Assembly: GCA_902559815.1 (NCBI GenBank)
Contig: CACEJE010000001.1
Location: 36,465 to 100,464 of the forward strand
DNA from: an uncultured Thiothrix sp.
GTDB taxonomy: Bacteria; Pseudomonadota; Gammaproteobacteria; Poriferisulfidales; GCA-002705445
Length of the DNA stretch: 64,000 nt
Direction of reading: 5' to 3'
Shown: in pieces, positions 21,147 to 27,747 of the stretch
How positions within the stretch are numbered: the stretch's first letter is position 1
Layout of the letters: the number at the start of each line of letters is the position of its first letter
Made by a program: the position numbers and the translations under genes
The notes under the pieces: generated by a model
What the model saw: the letters and a program-made list of their open reading frames with translations, nothing else
The model's database searches: none
What the model was told of the DNA's origin: nothing

Positions 21147-21905
21147 TTATTTTTTATTTTTTTGACTTTGTTTGAACTTTAAATCTACGTATTTCATTAT
21201 TGTGGTTTCATATCTCAAAAAAGCTAGAGTAATACCAGTTAATCCGTCAAGAAATCCTAGTTTAATAAAATACATCTTGAAAAATGCCCACTGTCCTCTG
21301 AAAAAGCCTTTAAAAAAACCACCTTTTTTTTTCTTTAGATTTTGGTTACTCCAAGAATCAATATAAAAGCTCATTTTTTTATAATAATCACCTAAATCTT
21401 TGTATGTATCATGGTGTAAAGTGCCTTTAATTTTTTTTGGTTTATACTTATCTGGGATTATAAGTTTTTCGTGAACAAGCGCATTATCATACTGAGTAAG
21501 GTTTCTTGGGTATAATCTACTAATCCAATCAGGATACCAACCTGAGTGTCTTACTTCACGCCCAAATGCCTTGCTCAGTCTATTAACTTGATATATTTGA
21601 GGAGATGAATTAATCGCAGTTTGAATAGAATTTTTGAGTTCTTCATCAATATACTCGTCTGCGTCTAGCATAAATATCCAGTCGCTTGATGCTAATTTTT
21701 GTGCACCTTGTCGCTGTTTACCAAAACCAGGCCAAGATTTAGAATAATGAATATTTTTTGTATAATTTTTTGCAATTTTTATTGTATTATCCGTGCTACC
21801 AGAATCTAGTATTATAATTTCGTTTGCCCAAGAACAACTTTTTAAAGCTCTTTCAATAAAATTTTCGGCATTCTTTACTATTATTATTATGCTTATAGTG
21901 CTCAT
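21147..21905 (-). CDS. family 2 glycosyltransferase (LPS core type)
   Basis: 252 aa. SIIIIVKNAE, ILDSGSTDNT and MLDADE (DxD). Confidence 0.75.
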   Translation of the reverse strand: MSTISIIIIVKNAENFIERALKSCSWANEIIILDSGSTDNTIKIAKNYTKNIHYSKSWPGFGKQRQGAQKLASSDWIFMLDADEYIDEELKNSIQTAINSSPQIYQVNRLSKAFGREVRHSGWYPDWISRLYPRNLTQYDNALVHEKLIIPDKYKPKKIKGTLHHDTYKDLGDYYKKMSFYIDSWSNQNLKKKKGGFFKGFFRGQWAFFKMYFIKLGFLDGLTGITLAFLRYETTIMKYVDLKFKQSQKNKK

Positions 21906-21961
21906 AGTATTAAAAATTATAACACTATTTATAAATATTCATTAATAAGCGATTGGATATA

Positions 21962-22038
21962 TGGTGGCCCCGGTAGGACTCGAACCTACGACAAATGGAT
22001 TATGAGTCCACTGCTCTAACCAACTGAGCTACAGGGCC
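21962..22038 (-). tRNA. tRNA with CAT anticodon, most likely tRNA-Ile2 (lysidine-modified)
   Basis: The minus strand reads GGCCCTGTAGCTCAGTTGGTTAGAGCAGTGGACTCATAATCCATTTGTCGTAGGTTCGAGTCCTACCGGGGCCACCA. It folds into a full cloverleaf by hand with an encoded CCA. The acceptor stem GGCCC.../...GGGCC carries C4-G69 and C5-G68 like E. coli ileX rather than elongator tRNA-Met. Confidence 0.85.
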
Positions 22039-22121
22039 TTTTTAGAACAAGTTTAAGTTACACGATAAATTATTATACCACAATTACTTTAGGAAATTAT
22101 TTGAAATAAATTTTGAAAAAA

Positions 22122-22153
22122 AACCCATTATTCTTTTTTTTGAATAATGGGTT
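22122..22153 (-). terminator. intrinsic terminator downstream of the His-rich OMP gene
   Basis: Perfect 12-bp stem AACCCATTATTC/GAATAATGGGTT with an 8-nt loop. On the minus strand it is followed by a run of eight T. Confidence 0.6.
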
Positions 22154-22182
22154 ATTAGGAGTTGAAAATACTTTATATATTT

Positions 22183-23328
22183 TTATAGTTCATAACTATA
22201 TCTTAAACCTAAGCCAAATCTTTCCGTCACTTCAAGCTCTTCATCAGTTCTTTTGAATCCAAAGCTAAGTGAAAGTTTTTCTGATAATGAATACCCAATA
22301 GAAATTTGTAACAATTTACCATCAGCTCCTTCAGCTTCCTCGTCAGCTACGTTATCTACAAAAGTATATGTAGTGCTGAAATTCCAAGGGAAAAGATTTA
22401 AGCCTAGAGAACTTGTAAAATAAGATCTGTCATGACCTGCTTCACCGTTATAATGATTGATATCCATATATTCAAAAATTATGGTTTTACTAATTTGTGA
22501 ATCAAAATTTTCTTTGTATCCAAGAGAGATTGAATATCTGGTTTCATCATTATCATTATTTATACCTTTTTTTTGTAAAGCGTATCCTAGTCTGTAAAAA
22601 ATTCTCTCTGCAAAATTATTTTCTAGAGAATAAAAATCTTTCCCTCCAATTGAAATAGCATAGGAATCAAAATCTTCTGTATTCGCTAATCCCCCATCTT
22701 TTTTACTTGTATGTCCTCTTTGATCAACTATAGCATCACTTAAAAATGTTGTATCCGCAAAAAAAGTGCTTATATTAAATTTGTGAGTACCAAAATCTTT
22801 AAAATTTGCTGAATATTTTAGACCGACACCAATACGTTCAGCTATTTTATATTCTTCAATCATTGAGTAAGAATATAAGCCAGGAAAACTATGATAATCT
22901 AGACCGACTTTCGGATTAAACTTGCCGGCATAAGCAGAAAAATCTTTATGACTATATTTCACTGTCAATGATTCTACAATAACTGGATGATCTTCAAAAA
23001 ATCTACTGTCACCATCATGAGATCTTGTTACGCCGCCGTGAGCATGGCCAGCTGGTTCTCCTTCGACTTTAATATTTGCATCAATGTTAAGATTTTCATA
23101 TATTCTTGAGCCAAGCTCAATATGTGAATGCGTATAAATTTCATTTACCTCTTCATCACCTTCTTCTGCATCACTAATATGATCTGCGTGAAGACGTATA
23201 CCAATATGTCCATAAAATGATTTGTCTGAATGAGCAGAGTGATCATGGTCATGTTCTTCTTCTGCAATTGAATATTTATTTATAAAAAATGAAGCAAGTA
23301 TTATATAAAATAAAAGTTTATATTTCAT
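22183..23328 (-). CDS. histidine-rich porin-like outer membrane beta-barrel protein (Zur-box associated)
   Basis: 381 aa with a signal peptide, then EEEHDHDHSAHSD and further H-rich stretches (PAGHAHGG). Alternating amphipathic strands run to the C-terminus. A Zur-box palindrome lies 30 bp upstream. Confidence 0.6.
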   Translation of the reverse strand: MKYKLLFYIILASFFINKYSIAEEEHDHDHSAHSDKSFYGHIGIRLHADHISDAEEGDEEVNEIYTHSHIELGSRIYENLNIDANIKVEGEPAGHAHGGVTRSHDGDSRFFEDHPVIVESLTVKYSHKDFSAYAGKFNPKVGLDYHSFPGLYSYSMIEEYKIAERIGVGLKYSANFKDFGTHKFNISTFFADTTFLSDAIVDQRGHTSKKDGGLANTEDFDSYAISIGGKDFYSLENNFAERIFYRLGYALQKKGINNDNDETRYSISLGYKENFDSQISKTIIFEYMDINHYNGEAGHDRSYFTSSLGLNLFPWNFSTTYTFVDNVADEEAEGADGKLLQISIGYSLSEKLSLSFGFKRTDEELEVTERFGLGLRYSYEL

Positions 23329-23357
23329 TTAAATCTCCATAACGTGAAAAGTATGTT

Positions 23358-23374
23358 ATGTTATATTATAACAT
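23358..23374. promoter_or_regulatory. Zur box (perfect palindrome ATGTTATATTATAACAT)
   Basis: 17-bp perfect inverted repeat matching the gammaproteobacterial Zur operator core (GAAATGTTATAATATAACATTTC). It lies between the znuB stop and the OMP start. Confidence 0.7.
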
Positions 23375-23399
23375 TTAGTAATGTCAATATATTATTTTT

Positions 23400-24197
23400 T
23401 TATCTTATTTTTTTAATTAAAAATGAAGCTGATGATATTGCAATGAAAATTATAACCGCTGAAACTACAATTGACGGTCCAGAAGGTGTATCAAAATATA
23501 AAGAACTATAAATACCAAGTATAACAGCAATTATACCAAGGAATGATGCTAAAACTGCCATTGTTTCAGGAGAATGGGATAATTGCCTTGCAGTTGCTGC
23601 TGGAATAATTAGTAAAGAAGTTATCAATAATAAACCAACAATTCTGAACGAAACAGCAACAACAATTGTCATTAAAAACATAATCAAAAGTTGATTAATT
23701 AAAATATTTAAACCCTCAGCTTTTGCGAGTTTTTCATTAATTGTAGTTAATACAAAAGATGACCAGTTATGATAAAGAAAAACTAATACAATAAGGCTAC
23801 CAGAAATTATCAGATAAATTTCTGAAGTTGTGACAGCTAAAATGTCTCCAAATAAATAAGAGTGAAGATCTACACTTTTTTCCAAAAGACTAAGAGTAAC
23901 CATTCCAATAGATAATGCCGAATGAGCAAGAATTCCCAAAAGTGTATCTGTTGCTAATATTTGTTTTTGTTGTAACCAAATTAATAAAATTGTAAATAAA
24001 GTACATATAATTATTGTGCCTAAATTGGTGCTTATTCCCAATACAAGTCCTAGAGCAACACCAAGCAAAGCACTATGTGCTAAAGAGTCTCCAAAATATG
24101 CCATTTTTCTCCAAACAACAAAACAACCTATAGCTCCAGCAATAATAGCTACACCAATTCCCGCAATTGTTGCTCTAATTAAAAAAGGTTCAATCAT
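23400..24197 (-). CDS. znuB: zinc ABC transporter permease
   Basis: 265 aa with about 8 TM segments, of the ABC-3 family type. Overlaps the znuC stop. Confidence 0.85.
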   Translation of the reverse strand: MIEPFLIRATIAGIGVAIIAGAIGCFVVWRKMAYFGDSLAHSALLGVALGLVLGISTNLGTIIICTLFTILLIWLQQKQILATDTLLGILAHSALSIGMVTLSLLEKSVDLHSYLFGDILAVTTSEIYLIISGSLIVLVFLYHNWSSFVLTTINEKLAKAEGLNILINQLLIMFLMTIVVAVSFRIVGLLLITSLLIIPAATARQLSHSPETMAVLASFLGIIAVILGIYSSLYFDTPSGPSIVVSAVIIFIAISSASFLIKKIR

Positions 24198-24918
24198 TTA
24201 AATTCTCAGAATGCACGTGATCGTGTGTGTGTTGATAGACAGACATCATTTTCGCCATATCATTTCCAAATAAATTAACAAACTCAGGATCTTTTGCGAC
24301 AGTTTGCGGTTCTCCCGAACAGCATACATGGTGATATAAGCATATAACTTGCTTTGTAGAAGCCATAACCATATGCAGATCATGTGATACCATTAAAATA
24401 CTGATAGCTCGACTTTTATAAACATTATTTAAAAGATTATAAAAGTTTAATTGGTTTTTGATGTCAAGGTTTTGGGCCGGCTCATCTAAAATTAAAAGTT
24501 CTGGGTCACTTAGTAAGCTTCTTGCTAATAAAACTTTTTGTAATTCTCCCCCAGAAAGATCTGCCAAATTTTTTTCAAGAATTGTTGAAATTTTAGTTTC
24601 TCCTGAAACTTTTTTTAAGTTATTTATATTAAAATTCTTTTTAAGCATTAAAAATCTCTTAACTGTGATGGGCATAGAATTATCAGGATTAAAATTTTGG
24701 GGAATATATCCTATTGAAAGATTATTTTTTTTATTTATTATTCCACTGTCTGGGCTAAAAGTACCCATTAGACATTCTAATAACATAGATTTCCCAGCCC
24801 CATTTGGGCCAATTATGGTTATGAAATCTTTTTTGTTTATTTGGATGAAAACATTTTCCAGAATGTTTTTACCTTGTCTTTTGACATAAATATCTTTAGC
24901 TTCAATTAATAAGGACAT
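24190..24918 (-). CDS. znuC: zinc ABC transporter ATP-binding protein
   Basis: 242 aa. Walker A GPNGAGKS, signature LSGGELQ, Walker B LLILDEP. His-rich C-terminal tail HTHDHVH. Confidence 0.88.
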   Translation of the reverse strand: MSLLIEAKDIYVKRQGKNILENVFIQINKKDFITIIGPNGAGKSMLLECLMGTFSPDSGIINKKNNLSIGYIPQNFNPDNSMPITVKRFLMLKKNFNINNLKKVSGETKISTILEKNLADLSGGELQKVLLARSLLSDPELLILDEPAQNLDIKNQLNFYNLLNNVYKSRAISILMVSHDLHMVMASTKQVICLYHHVCCSGEPQTVAKDPEFVNLFGNDMAKMMSVYQHTHDHVHSENLND

Positions 24919-25377
24919 TTAATTAAGACATTGTTGACAGGTACCAGCAATTTCCAATACTGCTTGATCCGGCACGAAGTTATTTTTACTTGTTGTATTC
25001 TTAATTACATTATTTATTTTTTTTGAACAACATTCTTCAATTTTTTGACAGTTATTGCATATTAAGAAATAGCATTCTTTGTGATCTTGTGGATGGGAGC
25101 ATCCAATAAATGCGTTTAAGCTTTGAAGTTTATGTATAAATCCATGTTCCAATAAAAAATCTAATGTTCTGTATATTGTGGGTGGTTTAGCAGACGGATC
25201 TATTTTTTTAAGTTCATCAAGAAGATCATATGCTTTTACATAACCCCCTTCTTTTAAAATTAATGATAATACATCTTGTCTTAGTTTAGTTAACCTTAAA
25301 CCATTTCTTTTGCATATAATATCTGCTTGCTTTAAAGCTTTGTTAATATCAGTTTTTCTTATCGTGTATTTAGTCAT
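24919..25377 (-). CDS. zur: zinc uptake regulator (Fur family)
   Basis: 152 aa winged-helix protein with HxxCxxC...CxxC metal sites (CNNC, CQQC). It is the first gene of zur-znuC-znuB, divergent from znuA. Confidence 0.8.
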   Translation of the reverse strand: MTKYTIRKTDINKALKQADIICKRNGLRLTKLRQDVLSLILKEGGYVKAYDLLDELKKIDPSAKPPTIYRTLDFLLEHGFIHKLQSLNAFIGCSHPQDHKECYFLICNNCQKIEECCSKKINNVIKNTTSKNNFVPDQAVLEIAGTCQQCLN

Positions 25378-25409: not shown

Positions 25410-25426
25410 ATGTTATAATATAACAT
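25410..25426. promoter_or_regulatory. Zur box (perfect palindrome ATGTTATAATATAACAT) in the zur-znuCB / znuA divergent promoter
   Basis: 17-bp perfect inverted repeat, identical to the Zur consensus core, centred in the 99-bp divergent intergenic region. Confidence 0.78.
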
Positions 25427-25476: not shown

Positions 25477-26388
25477 ATGTATAAAAAAGTATTTATAATT
25501 ATTCTCACCTTTTTTAGTTGTTGCAATGCTTTTGCTAGCAAACCACTTATTGTTGCTAGCATAAATCCACTCCATTCAATAGTAACCTCTATAGTTGGAA
25601 ATACAGGGAATGTCTCTTTATTAATTGAAAGCAATACTTCGCCACACAATTTTGCTTTGAAGCCATCCCATGCAAAATTATTGAATAACGCAGAAATATT
25701 TTTTTATATTGATGATCAGCTTGAATCAGCACTAAAAAAAACTATTAAAAGTCTTCCTAAAACTGTAAAAGTCAAAAAAGTTTCGCAATTTAAAAATTTA
25801 AAGCTCTTGCCTGTTAGAGAAAATCTGAATTGGGAAGAAGATGGACATGGCCACAATCACGATCATGATCACGGTTCATATGATATACATTTTTGGCTTG
25901 ATACTCAAAATGCAATTGAGATAGCAAAAGGTGTTACTCAAGAACTTAGCAAATTATACCCAGAAAATATTAATACTTATAAAAAAAATGCAAAAAAACT
26001 TATTACTAAGATTAAGACAAAAGATAATTCTATAAAATTAAAATTAAAAGAAGTTAAGAATAAGCCATATATAGTTTTTCATGATGCGTACCAATATTTT
26101 GAGAAAGCTTATAATTTAAATGCAATAGGGTCCATATTACTTAACCCTGAACAACCACCATCACCTAAGCGAATAATTAAAATAAGGTCTAAAATTAAAA
26201 CGTTAAATGCATATTGTGTTTTTAAAGAGCCGCAGTTTAAAGCGCAAATTGTTAATACTGTGATTGAAAATACAAATGCAAAAGTTGGCACATTAGATCC
26301 ATTAGGTTCAAATATAGTTTCCGGTCAAGATATGTACATCAATTTATTAGATGATCTTGCTACTAATCTTAAAAACTGTCTAAAATAA
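25477..26388 (+). CDS. znuA: zinc ABC transporter periplasmic binding protein
   Basis: 303 aa with a signal peptide. Cluster A-I binding-protein fold with the ZnuA-specific His/acid loop EEDGHGHNHDHDHGS. Confidence 0.88.
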   Translation: MYKKVFIIILTFFSCCNAFASKPLIVASINPLHSIVTSIVGNTGNVSLLIESNTSPHNFALKPSHAKLLNNAEIFFYIDDQLESALKKTIKSLPKTVKVKKVSQFKNLKLLPVRENLNWEEDGHGHNHDHDHGSYDIHFWLDTQNAIEIAKGVTQELSKLYPENINTYKKNAKKLITKIKTKDNSIKLKLKEVKNKPYIVFHDAYQYFEKAYNLNAIGSILLNPEQPPSPKRIIKIRSKIKTLNAYCVFKEPQFKAQIVNTVIENTNAKVGTLDPLGSNIVSGQDMYINLLDDLATNLKNCLK

Positions 26389-26450
26389 AGAAATTATAAT
26401 AAATTTTTTCAACTTTAAGTAATTGATTCTAAGCATATTAATATTATATA

Positions 26451-26499
26451 TGAGAATAATTCTCATTTGCTATTGCAAATGATATTAATAATCATTATC
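26451..26499 (+). promoter_or_regulatory. tandem Fur boxes upstream of the porin-like gene
   Basis: 26451-26465 is TGAGAATAATTCTCA, a perfect palindrome matching 13/15 of the 7-1-7 motif TGATAATNATTATCA. 26481-26499 is GATATTAATAATCATTATC, matching 17/19 of the GATAATGATAATCATTATC consensus. Confidence 0.68.
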
Positions 26500-26535
26500 A
26501 TTAAGTTCAGATTAATAATTTTAAAGGATGTAATA

Positions 26536-27747
26536 ATGAAAAAAGTAGGACTAATATTTGTATTAATGTTTACGTCTGCTTTAAATGCAGAAACACTAGA
26601 GCACGTGGAAGAAGAAGTGCATATTGCATTAGAAACAATCGGCCAACTAAAAGCTGAAATTAATGAGTTGAAAGAAATTGTTAAAATGCAAGGTGAAATT
26701 CAAGAATCTACGACATCAAGAATTGCTAAAACAGCAAAAAAGTTTGAAAAACTTCATCTTGGTGGATATGGCGAATTACATTATAACGATACGGAAACAG
26801 ATGGAGGAACCAAATCAAAGAGTATGGACGCTCATAGATTTGTTTTATTCTTTGGTTATGATTTTAATGAGAAAGTTAGATTCAGATCGGAATTTGAGTT
26901 GGAACACGCTTTAGTAAAAGACACAGCGGATGGTTCAAATGGCGGTGAAGTAGAACTAGAGCAAATGTATATAGAAATGGATTTGTCAGACGCAACGTCT
27001 TTAAGAGCTGGTGTAATTTTGATTCCGATGGGTATTCTAAACGAACATCATGAGCCACCAACATTTTATGGTGTGGAAAGAAACGACGTTGAAAAATATC
27101 TAATTCCTACAACTTGGTGGGCAGGTGGTGTTGAAGTAGTTCATAAAACGAAAAATGGTTTTATGTTCGAAGCTATGCTTCACGAGGGAATGAAAGGAAG
27201 TGCAACAACAGGATATATAAGAGGTGGTCGCCAAAAATCTGCAAGCGCTACTGCAAATGATTTAGCATATACCGCAAGAATTACATACACCGGTATTCCA
27301 GGCTTGAAAGCATCACTCTTCTATAATCATCAGGCTGACTTTACTCAGGATTCTGGGGACAACATTGATAAGCTTGATATTATGGGCGCATCAGCAATTT
27401 ATCAATTTGGATCAGGCTTTGAGGTAAGAGGCTTACACGTTCAAGCTGAATTTGATGGAAAGGATGAGTCGGGTACATTTTTCACAAATGGTTTTGACGA
27501 ACAACAAGGAACGTTTTTAGAGGTTTCAAAAAGATTTGGAAATGTAGGTTTCTTTGCTAATAATTCTGTTGTATCAGGAGAAAGTATCTCTAGACAATAC
27601 ACAGTTGTTCAATATGGATTTAGCTGGTGGCCACAAGGAACTGACGCAGTAATAAAAGCAAATTGGTATGATAAAGAATATTCAAACCCATCAAAAGATA
27701 GTAGTGATGCTGACGGTATTCATTTGGGCATGGGTTATGAATTTTAA
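26536..27747 (+). CDS. porin-like outer membrane beta-barrel protein with N-terminal coiled coil (Fur-box associated)
   Basis: The ATG at 26536 gives the signal peptide MKKVGLIFVLMFTSALNA. A short coiled coil is followed by amphipathic strands, and the protein ends GMGYEF (C-terminal Phe OMP signature). The track ORF start at 26467 would place the Fur boxes inside coding sequence. Confidence 0.62.
   Translation: MKKVGLIFVLMFTSALNAETLEHVEEEVHIALETIGQLKAEINELKEIVKMQGEIQESTTSRIAKTAKKFEKLHLGGYGELHYNDTETDGGTKSKSMDAHRFVLFFGYDFNEKVRFRSEFELEHALVKDTADGSNGGEVELEQMYIEMDLSDATSLRAGVILIPMGILNEHHEPPTFYGVERNDVEKYLIPTTWWAGGVEVVHKTKNGFMFEAMLHEGMKGSATTGYIRGGRQKSASATANDLAYTARITYTGIPGLKASLFYNHQADFTQDSGDNIDKLDIMGASAIYQFGSGFEVRGLHVQAEFDGKDESGTFFTNGFDEQQGTFLEVSKRFGNVGFFANNSVVSGESISRQYTVVQYGFSWWPQGTDAVIKANWYDKEYSNPSKDSSDADGIHLGMGYEF

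Follow-up and report, generated by a model that had tools for sequence, protein, structure and literature searches.

A predicted Zur-controlled, histidine-rich porin as a probable TonB-independent outer-membrane entry route for zinc

The locus described here raises the question of how zinc crosses the outer membrane on its way to the ZnuABC importer. It lies in a 64,000-nt stretch of DNA (the window; contig CACEJE010000001.1 of assembly GCA_902559815.1, positions 36,465-100,464, forward strand) from an uncultured Thiothrix sp. of the GTDB lineage Gammaproteobacteria; Poriferisulfidales; GCA-002705445, the whole assembly being 0.9 Mb and 80% complete. TonB-dependent receptors, chiefly those of pathogens, are the only known means by which zinc passes the outer membrane; its entry is otherwise ascribed to unspecified diffusion through general porins (PMC6103462, PMC3323870, PMC4176598). 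In the window, the gene of a histidine-rich, predicted outer-membrane porin, P0001, follows zur-znuCB and has a Zur box of its own. We propose, with a probability of roughly 0.7, that this protein is a Zur-repressed channel that would admit zinc by facilitated diffusion and feed ZnuABC. It belongs to a hitherto undescribed family of porins and, judging from its sequence and predicted structure, it probably provides a TonB-independent outer-membrane entry route for zinc. The elements from which we began are the following:

22183..23328, minus strand: gene of the predicted histidine-rich outer-membrane porin P0001, 381 amino acids (aa) (open reading frame [ORF] and translation, AlphaFold2, Foldseek)
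23335..23338, minus strand: ribosome-binding site GGAG, 6 nt 5' of the porin ATG (read from the sequence)
23358..23374, no strand assigned: Zur box 1, predicted operator, a perfect 17-bp palindrome, ATGTTATATTATAACAT (pattern search, palindrome check)
23382..23387, minus strand: TTGACA, likely -35 hexamer of the porin gene (consensus scan and reading; promoter predicted)
25410..25426, no strand assigned: Zur box 2, predicted operator, ATGTTATAATATAACAT, between zur and znuA in the divergent zur-znuCB/znuA promoter region

Zur box 1 lies 29 nt from the porin ATG (23328) and fits the core of the proteobacterial Zur motif, GTTA-5N-TAAC (PMC4176598). Its arms are identical to those of Zur box 2, and the central base alone differs. 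The initial annotation, made from the sequence alone, had placed a perfect palindrome upstream of a 381-aa secreted protein and a near-identical one in the divergent promoter of zur-znuCB and znuA. Both were recovered at exactly those positions, and exact matches to ATGTTATAWTATAACAT numbered two in the window compared to none in 100 dinucleotide-preserving shuffles. The whole 0.9-Mb assembly holds only three exact Zur-type boxes, the third of which was found 30 nt 5' of the gene for a 403-aa ZigA-type COG0523 GTPase (L003:1501-2758) that passes the NCBIfam equivalog cut-off for ZigA with 695 bits. Given that these three boxes are the only exact ones and all front zinc-homeostasis genes (the porin gene, the shared zur-znuCB/znuA promoter, and zigA), we predict a Zur regulon composed of znuA, zur-znuCB, zigA, and the porin gene.

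The placement of Zur box 1 bears on how the porin gene might be controlled. The box sits between TTGACA and the porin start codon, and both candidate -10 hexamers of the predicted promoter, TATAAC (16-nt spacing) and TAACAT (18 nt), fall inside it. Zur-repressed promoters of Caulobacter have their operator overlying the -10 element, with boxes that carry the GTTA-5N-TAAC core (PMC4176598). As far as a predicted promoter can be compared, box 1 over the porin -10 is in the layout of a repressor, as in Caulobacter, and not in that of an upstream activator. In one relative (L012, 7187-8395), a zigA homologue with 89% identity lies immediately 3' of the porin gene, and the whole predicted regulon stands together.

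In Pfam, the porin gave only a Porin_4 signal of 21.5 bits (cut-off 27) over residues 245-362, with no match to Plug, TonB_dep_Rec, or Porin_O_P. The NCBIfam search yielded no match, a profile search against PDB sequences matched no solved chain, and a protein atlas search returned only "hypothetical protein" clusters. The AlphaFold2 model, built on a 29-sequence alignment, has 16 antiparallel beta-strands and no plug, with a predicted local distance difference test (pLDDT) score of 78 and a predicted template modeling (pTM) score of 0.77. A 26-residue loop (L2) follows strand 3. Strands 5 and 6 are joined by a 27-residue loop (residues 138-164) that resembles the L3 loop of porins; its residues 153-159 are modeled as a helix, and its P149-G150 is conserved. 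A Foldseek search with the model returned 276 matches in the PDB at E <= 0.001; porins ranked first, the best being PorB, VhChiP, OmpU, Omp32, and OmpF (E of about 1e-10, template modeling [TM] scores of 0.5-0.6, identity of 9-15%). We predict a plug-less 16-strand barrel of the classical porin type with both termini on one side, which would reside in the outer membrane; the prediction of a two-copy barrel complex scored 0.00, which says nothing on the oligomeric state. The initial annotation had read the 381-aa protein as beta-barrel-like and not of TonB-receptor size, and the modeled membrane barrel of 16 strands, its classical porin matches, and the unmatched Plug and TonB_dep_Rec domains agree with it on both counts.

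The N-terminal part of the protein is built as follows:

23263..23328, minus strand: signal-peptide-like N-terminus, residues 1-22, ending in SIA (cleavage site by eye; helix 2-18 in the AlphaFold2 model)
23218..23262, minus strand: His/Asp/Glu-rich tail, mature residues 23-37, EEEHDHDHSAHSD... (sequence; periplasmic side expected from barrel topology)
23122..23133, minus strand: THSH, residues 66-69 in strand 2, with H67 and H69 on the polar face (invariant in alignment A1; hydrophobic alternation)
23035..23049, minus strand: GHAHG, residues 94-98, at the start of L2, between strands 3 and 4 (H95 and H97 invariant in A1)

The mature N-terminus after SIA, together with THSH and GHAHG, is what had been described as a His/Asp/Glu-rich start followed by further histidine clusters. 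The placements of L3 and of the histidines were read from topology and hydrophobic alternation, not from coordinates. Strands 1-3 alternate cleanly in hydrophobicity, with H41, R45, H47, D49, H67, H69, E71, K87, and E89 on the polar face, taken here as the inside of the barrel. If the usual topology of porins applies, L2 (GHxHG and a His/Glu/Asp insert) would be external and the loop after strand 5, which carries H146, would form the constriction. The histidine-rich N-terminal tail should, by ordinary barrel topology, be periplasmic and not surface-exposed. In some orthologues, L2 holds His/Glu-rich inserts of variable length, and L7 is likewise His/Glu/Asp-rich and variable.

The genes next to the porin are those of zinc import, with zur-znuCB and then the porin gene on the minus strand and znuA divergent from them:

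25477..26388, plus strand: znuA, periplasmic zinc-binding protein (Pfam and NCBIfam best match ZnuA)
24919..25377, minus strand: zur, FUR-family repressor (Pfam FUR; NCBIfam best match Zur, 134 bits versus a 167-bit cut-off)
24190..24918, minus strand: znuC, ATPase (Pfam and NCBIfam best match ZnuC)
23400..24197, minus strand: znuB, ABC-3 permease (Pfam ABC-3, 1.6e-68; NCBIfam best match ZnuB)
22122..22153, minus strand: terminator-like hairpin and T run, 3' of the porin stop codon (sequence scan)

The NCBIfam assignments of ZnuB, ZnuC, Zur, and ZnuA are best matches, all of them under the equivalog cut-offs; ZnuA of the window carries the usual His-rich loop, GHGHNHDHDHG. We looked for a terminator between znuB and the porin gene and found none, so read-through from zur-znuCB into the porin gene is also possible. 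Four coastal metatranscriptome libraries held read-sized contigs, at a depth of about 2, that are near-identical to parts of the porin gene, znuB, znuC, zur, and znuA; contigs this thin establish neither transcription for certain nor regulation of the porin. The znuA/zur-znuCB-porin layout is common to Gamma- and Alphaproteobacteria (L018, L019), with ZnuB 66-69% and ZnuC 64% identical.

The association of the porin with zinc genes extends well beyond the window. A word-based search of sequences returned 123 homologues, each either without a name or labeled "hypothetical"; they come from marine Gamma- and Alphaproteobacteria. When one genome per GTDB species was then scanned, 80 loci were obtained, from which gene context was taken. 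The orthologue set comprises the 46 of these loci, from both classes, with at least 42% identity. In nearly all of them, the porin gene lies directly 3' of zur-znuCB or divergent from znuA, as judged by tblastn with the zinc genes of the window. The pairing of box and gene that the initial annotation had noted recurs in these relatives: a Zur-type box with at most two mismatches was found within 160 nt upstream in 40/46 loci, across two proteobacterial classes. Five further loci have a box with three mismatches (45/46 at up to three), and in the sole locus that lacks a box of its own the porin gene comes directly after znuB. Other box matches in the 537 kb of loci numbered 21, nearly all at the znuA/zur promoter. 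The box of the Alphaproteobacteria, ATGTTATGTTATAACAT, keeps the GTTA-5N-TAAC core intact. The porins of Gammaproteobacteria group in a single clade that is nested among those of Alphaproteobacteria, which, together with the shared gene layout and the ZnuB and ZnuC identities, suggests that the znu-porin module was transferred as a unit between the classes.

The histidines follow the same division as the zinc genes. The remaining 34 loci are sister relatives with 26-34% identity to the window porin. We built a quick maximum-likelihood tree with a midpoint root from 47 znu-linked rows and 31 others, in which the zinc clade (47 rows) and the sister clade (31 rows) each received a Shimodaira-Hasegawa-like approximate likelihood ratio test (SH-aLRT) value of 100. 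Both clades retain a scaffold of K136, D192, R204, D211, N216, and E218. In the zinc clade, H67, H69, H95, and H97 are near-invariant, H41, H146, and H299 are usually present, and THSH is kept in 46/47 rows. The sister clade has E/A at position 41, T/R at 67, E/T at 69, and D at 146 and 299, and positions 95 and 97 are deleted. The median number of histidines per protein is 22 (16-38) in the zinc clade versus 4 (2-9) in the sister clade, with medians of 4 versus 0 both for the N-tail and for L2. A His-rich N-tail occurs in all 47 zinc-clade sequences, with 2-14 histidines, compared to 0-1 in the sister clade. The conserved histidine set exceeds the low-complexity N-terminus, as aligned, to take in the polar face of strands 1 and 2 and loops L2, L3, and L6, and it belongs to the znu-linked clade only. 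When the sister-clade loci were searched by tblastn with the zinc genes of the window, no znu linkage was found.

Porin and importer also go missing together. The porin is present in 12 of 16 other genomes of the host's small-genome family (0.7-1.2 Mb), and in two sister families of the same order it occurs in 3/16 and 0/19 genomes. Four genomes of the same genus are without it, and none of the four has a znuB match; one of these congeners (G011), which is 98% complete, has no ABC-3 permease gene whatsoever. At the syntenic place (Vut_1, glycosyltransferase, tRNA; L087:1501-2411, window 21147-25377), G011 has a Zur-type box with one mismatch, a 127-aa membrane protein, zur, and then a small Phage_OMP-like barrel. 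The 127-aa protein has roughly three hydrophobic helices and ends in a His-rich tail; it may be a different zinc-related membrane protein. The porin and ZnuABC seem to form a single unit that was either lost or never acquired.

The sister clade keeps company with other metals. In 12 of its 34 loci, an imelysin gene lies 15-160 nt 3' of the porin gene (e.g., L064:5908-9850, L062:5719-9377, L054:4508-8402), followed in 8 of these 12 by a di-haem oxidoreductase gene and in 1 by a multicopper oxidase gene. Iron-uptake operons under Fur control are known to pair imelysin with a di-haem peroxidase (PMC3143127), and by their gene content the imelysin loci suggest that iron systems of the imelysin type include a porin in the outer membrane. 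Fur-like sites 5' of some of the imelysin-linked paralogues (perfect in L056, one mismatch in L064) had no background control and are a hint only. The paper on imelysin (PMC3143127) mentions no such outer-membrane porin component. In another sister subclade, the order porin-cbtB-cbtA occurs in four of four loci (L077-L080, e.g., L078:130-2224 and L080:4058-7818), with cobT adjoining in three of the four. Two cbtBA-linked loci have a divergent cobalamin riboswitch upstream, which fronts cobW in L080. By this linkage, the cbtBA-linked, His-less porin is a candidate for the outer-membrane entry of cobalt. Zur-like GTTA-5N-TAAC sites were also seen upstream in three of the cbtBA-linked loci.

A full hidden Markov model (HMM) search put the superfamily at 915 clusters at 50% identity. 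Among the best 150 of these clusters, about 23 full-length representatives are of the His type, with H67, H69, H95, and H97 the firmest positions. We considered that branches of this superfamily might serve as dedicated doors for one transition metal each, His-lined with Zur and ZnuABC for zinc, and carboxylate-lined with imelysin and di-haem proteins for iron or with CbtAB for cobalt; this wider idea is tentative, and we hold it to be possible rather than probable. If it is true, metal selectivity in many aquatic bacteria starts at the outer membrane, free of TonB, by a swap of ligands on one barrel.

What has been observed or computed comprises the features of the sequence, the fold prediction, the conserved box and synteny, and the clade-specific histidines. 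For the repressive action of Zur and for the binding of zinc, its order of hand-over, and its transport, we infer the following course of events. When zinc is plentiful, zinc-loaded Zur would occupy the palindrome over the porin -10 and switch the promoter off, and box 2 would impose the same zinc-replete shut-off on zur-znuCB and znuA. Under zinc scarcity, the cell would produce the porin along with ZnuABC and ZigA. Zinc, free or weakly complexed, would then cross the outer membrane by facilitated diffusion with no energy input. It would be captured by the His/acid-rich surface loops (L2, GHxHG) and handed along a row in the pore. H47, H67, H69, E71, and E89, which would line strands 1-3 on the inside, come first in this row, followed by H146 of the constriction loop and H299 of L6. 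On the periplasmic side, the zinc would pass to the His-rich N-terminal tail, and ZnuA, with its high affinity and its own His loop, would act as the sink.

Several points weigh against this proposal. Passive diffusion may be too slow at the picomolar to nanomolar zinc concentrations of the ocean unless binding sites speed the flux. The pLDDT is below 50 at residues 17-33 and 94-101, that is, in the N-tail and L2. The more distant His-type representatives vary at H41, H146, and H299, which leaves H67, H69, H95, and H97 as the firm core. Zur-like boxes also lie upstream of three to five His-less paralogues (L070, L078, and L082; weaker in L079 and L080), so the His set is not required for a Zur-type site, and a box alone is no proof of zinc specificity. 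Large alphaproteobacterial genomes (Sneathiella, 4.4 Mb) carry the porin as well, and it is therefore not simply a stand-in for missing TonB systems. Lastly, the genome has one Plug-domain ORF of 626 aa (L085:1219-3099, minus strand), whose barrel falls under the PF00593 threshold and which adjoins nadC and a sodium:alanine symporter gene.

Neither an exact Zur box nor a cobalamin riboswitch was found near the 626-aa ORF. A search of the 80%-complete assembly gave no match to PF00593 and none to TonB_C. The idea that the genome is free of TonB-type receptors was rejected given that the Plug-domain ORF was found despite the lack of a PF00593 match; genomes of the same genus have 0-2 TonB-type receptors each. 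The window also contains a second porin-like gene beyond znuA:

26450-26466: 17-bp palindrome ATGAGAATAATTCTCAT, 5' of the second porin-like gene
26478-26502: Fur-box-like stretch, 5' of the second porin-like gene
26536-27747, plus strand: second porin-like gene, with a coiled-coil-like N-terminus

We rejected a close paralogy between the His-rich porin and this Fur-box porin, given a best BLASTP E value of 0.74 and the fact that tblastn with the Fur-box porin misses the relatives of the His-rich one.

The fold of the window porin is that of the general diffusion porins, and its sole Pfam signal is Porin_4. Both would suit a general, non-selective porin that is upregulated in zinc starvation for the sake of permeability, as has been proposed for MspD of Mycobacterium smegmatis, and whose histidines give no real selectivity. 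MspD offers the precedent of a Zur-regulated porin of the general type (PMC13098993). In addition, no Porin_4-like ORFs besides the Zur-box porin and the Fur-box porin were found in the 80%-complete genome, so general diffusion may fall to one of these two. A general porin, however, would not be expected to be shut off in zinc-replete cells, and neither the seven His positions that are conserved over two classes and swapped as a set in the sister clade, nor the excess of histidines over the paralogues (16-38 versus 2-9), nor the tight linkage to znuABC and the joint loss fit it well. We regard this explanation as unlikely. The selectivity might instead be for a small zinc-ligand complex (a zincophore or a natural organic zinc ligand), with the protein as its channel or receptor or as a surface zinc sponge and not as a conduit for the free ion. 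Oceanic zinc is mostly bound by organic ligands (PMC3323870), the His/Glu/Asp-rich L2 and L7 vary in length as capture loops do, and a 16-strand pore, from what is generally known of porins, passes solutes of a few hundred daltons. No genes for making or exporting metallophores were found beside the porin in the window, however, and the neighbours detected in most related loci are only ZnuABC, Zur, or ZnuA. ZnuA-type proteins are generally known to bind the ion and not a complex, and invariant histidines on the modeled inner wall and in L3 would suggest coordination of the ion itself. The complex as substrate is about as improbable, in our view, as the general porin.

Further from the evidence is entry of another metal (cobalt, nickel, cadmium, or copper) under Zur control, or a role in protection, efflux, or periplasmic buffering by the His tails. 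His-rich sites bind nickel, cobalt, copper, and cadmium too, superfamily relatives are tied to cobalt (cbtBA) and to iron-type genes, and Zur activates efflux genes in some bacteria (PMC4176598). The box over the predicted -10, however, is in the layout of a repressor and not of an upstream activator, the constant neighbours are ZnuABC and ZnuA (with Zur where detected) and not efflux pumps, and the cobalt- and iron-linked relatives are exactly those without the histidines; we give roles of this kind very little weight. The Zur-repressed zinc channel that feeds ZnuABC is the explanation that we favor, and the analysis thereby supports the reading of the initial annotation. If it is true, it supplies the missing outer-membrane step of zinc uptake for marine Gamma- and Alphaproteobacteria that live at picomolar to nanomolar zinc, and the porin gene would serve as a marker by which zinc stress could be followed in metatranscriptomes and metaproteomes of the ocean. 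The iron- and cobalt-linked sister branches would be a natural series for the tuning of a porin scaffold to one metal. Given that cultured Sneathiella strains, namely S. glossodoripedis JCM 23214 (L029) and S. chungangensis KCTC 32476 (L046), carry the porin gene, the idea is directly testable.

Several known systems resemble the proposed zinc porin in part. With the classical trimeric porins (PorB, OmpF/OmpC, OmpU, VhChiP, and Omp32), it shares the predicted 16-strand barrel and the long, helix-bearing loop after strand 5, and OmpU and VhChiP have N-terminal extensions that enter a pore. These porins, in contrast, are only 9-15% identical to it and have no His lining and no Zur control. ZnuD-type receptors have His/Asp-rich surface loops. 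They are likewise Zur-regulated, provide outer-membrane entry for zinc in Neisseria and Acinetobacter, and work with ZnuABC (PMC2895646, PMC6103462). They differ in having 22 strands, a plug, and TonB-supplied energy, whereas the protein described here has a predicted 16 strands, no plug, and about half the size. In Gram-negative bacteria, the outer-membrane proteins known to be regulated by Zur are receptors of the TonB-dependent kind (PMC6103462), and terms such as "zinc porin" or "Zur-regulated porin" were not found in the literature searched. The only Zur-linked porin found there was MspD of Mycobacterium smegmatis; zinc starvation and mutation of zur both induce its gene, and the protein aids the passage of zinc across the outer membrane (PMC13098993). 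MspD has an unrelated fold, being an MspA-type octameric goblet of the mycomembrane, and unlike the protein described here it is close to a general porin (MspA) and has no dedicated His set.

The closest counterparts in operation are porins for other ions. OprP and OprO of Pseudomonas aeruginosa are phosphate- and pyrophosphate-specific, starvation-induced 16-strand porins in which a ladder of binding residues speeds the diffusion of a scarce ion, and they feed the periplasmic binding protein of an ATP-binding cassette (ABC) importer. They are anion-selective through Arg and Lys and belong to the PhoB regulon, whereas the porin described here has histidines and carboxylates, suited to cations, and a Zur box. 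MnoP of Bradyrhizobium japonicum is reportedly, in work by Hohle et al. from 2011, switched on by manganese scarcity through a Fur-family regulator. MnoP (blr0095) is described as an outer-membrane Mn2+ channel (Hohle et al. 2011, as cited in PMC6011978). It is likewise a TonB-independent channel for one divalent transition metal, upstream of a high-affinity inner-membrane importer; it differs in its metal, manganese instead of zinc, and in its regulator, it is not known for a conserved His set, and the two are likened by description only. By analogy with these systems, we consider it probable that the protein described here works like the known starvation-induced specific porins, and we propose that its logic would be for zinc what that of OprP is for phosphate and that of MnoP for manganese.

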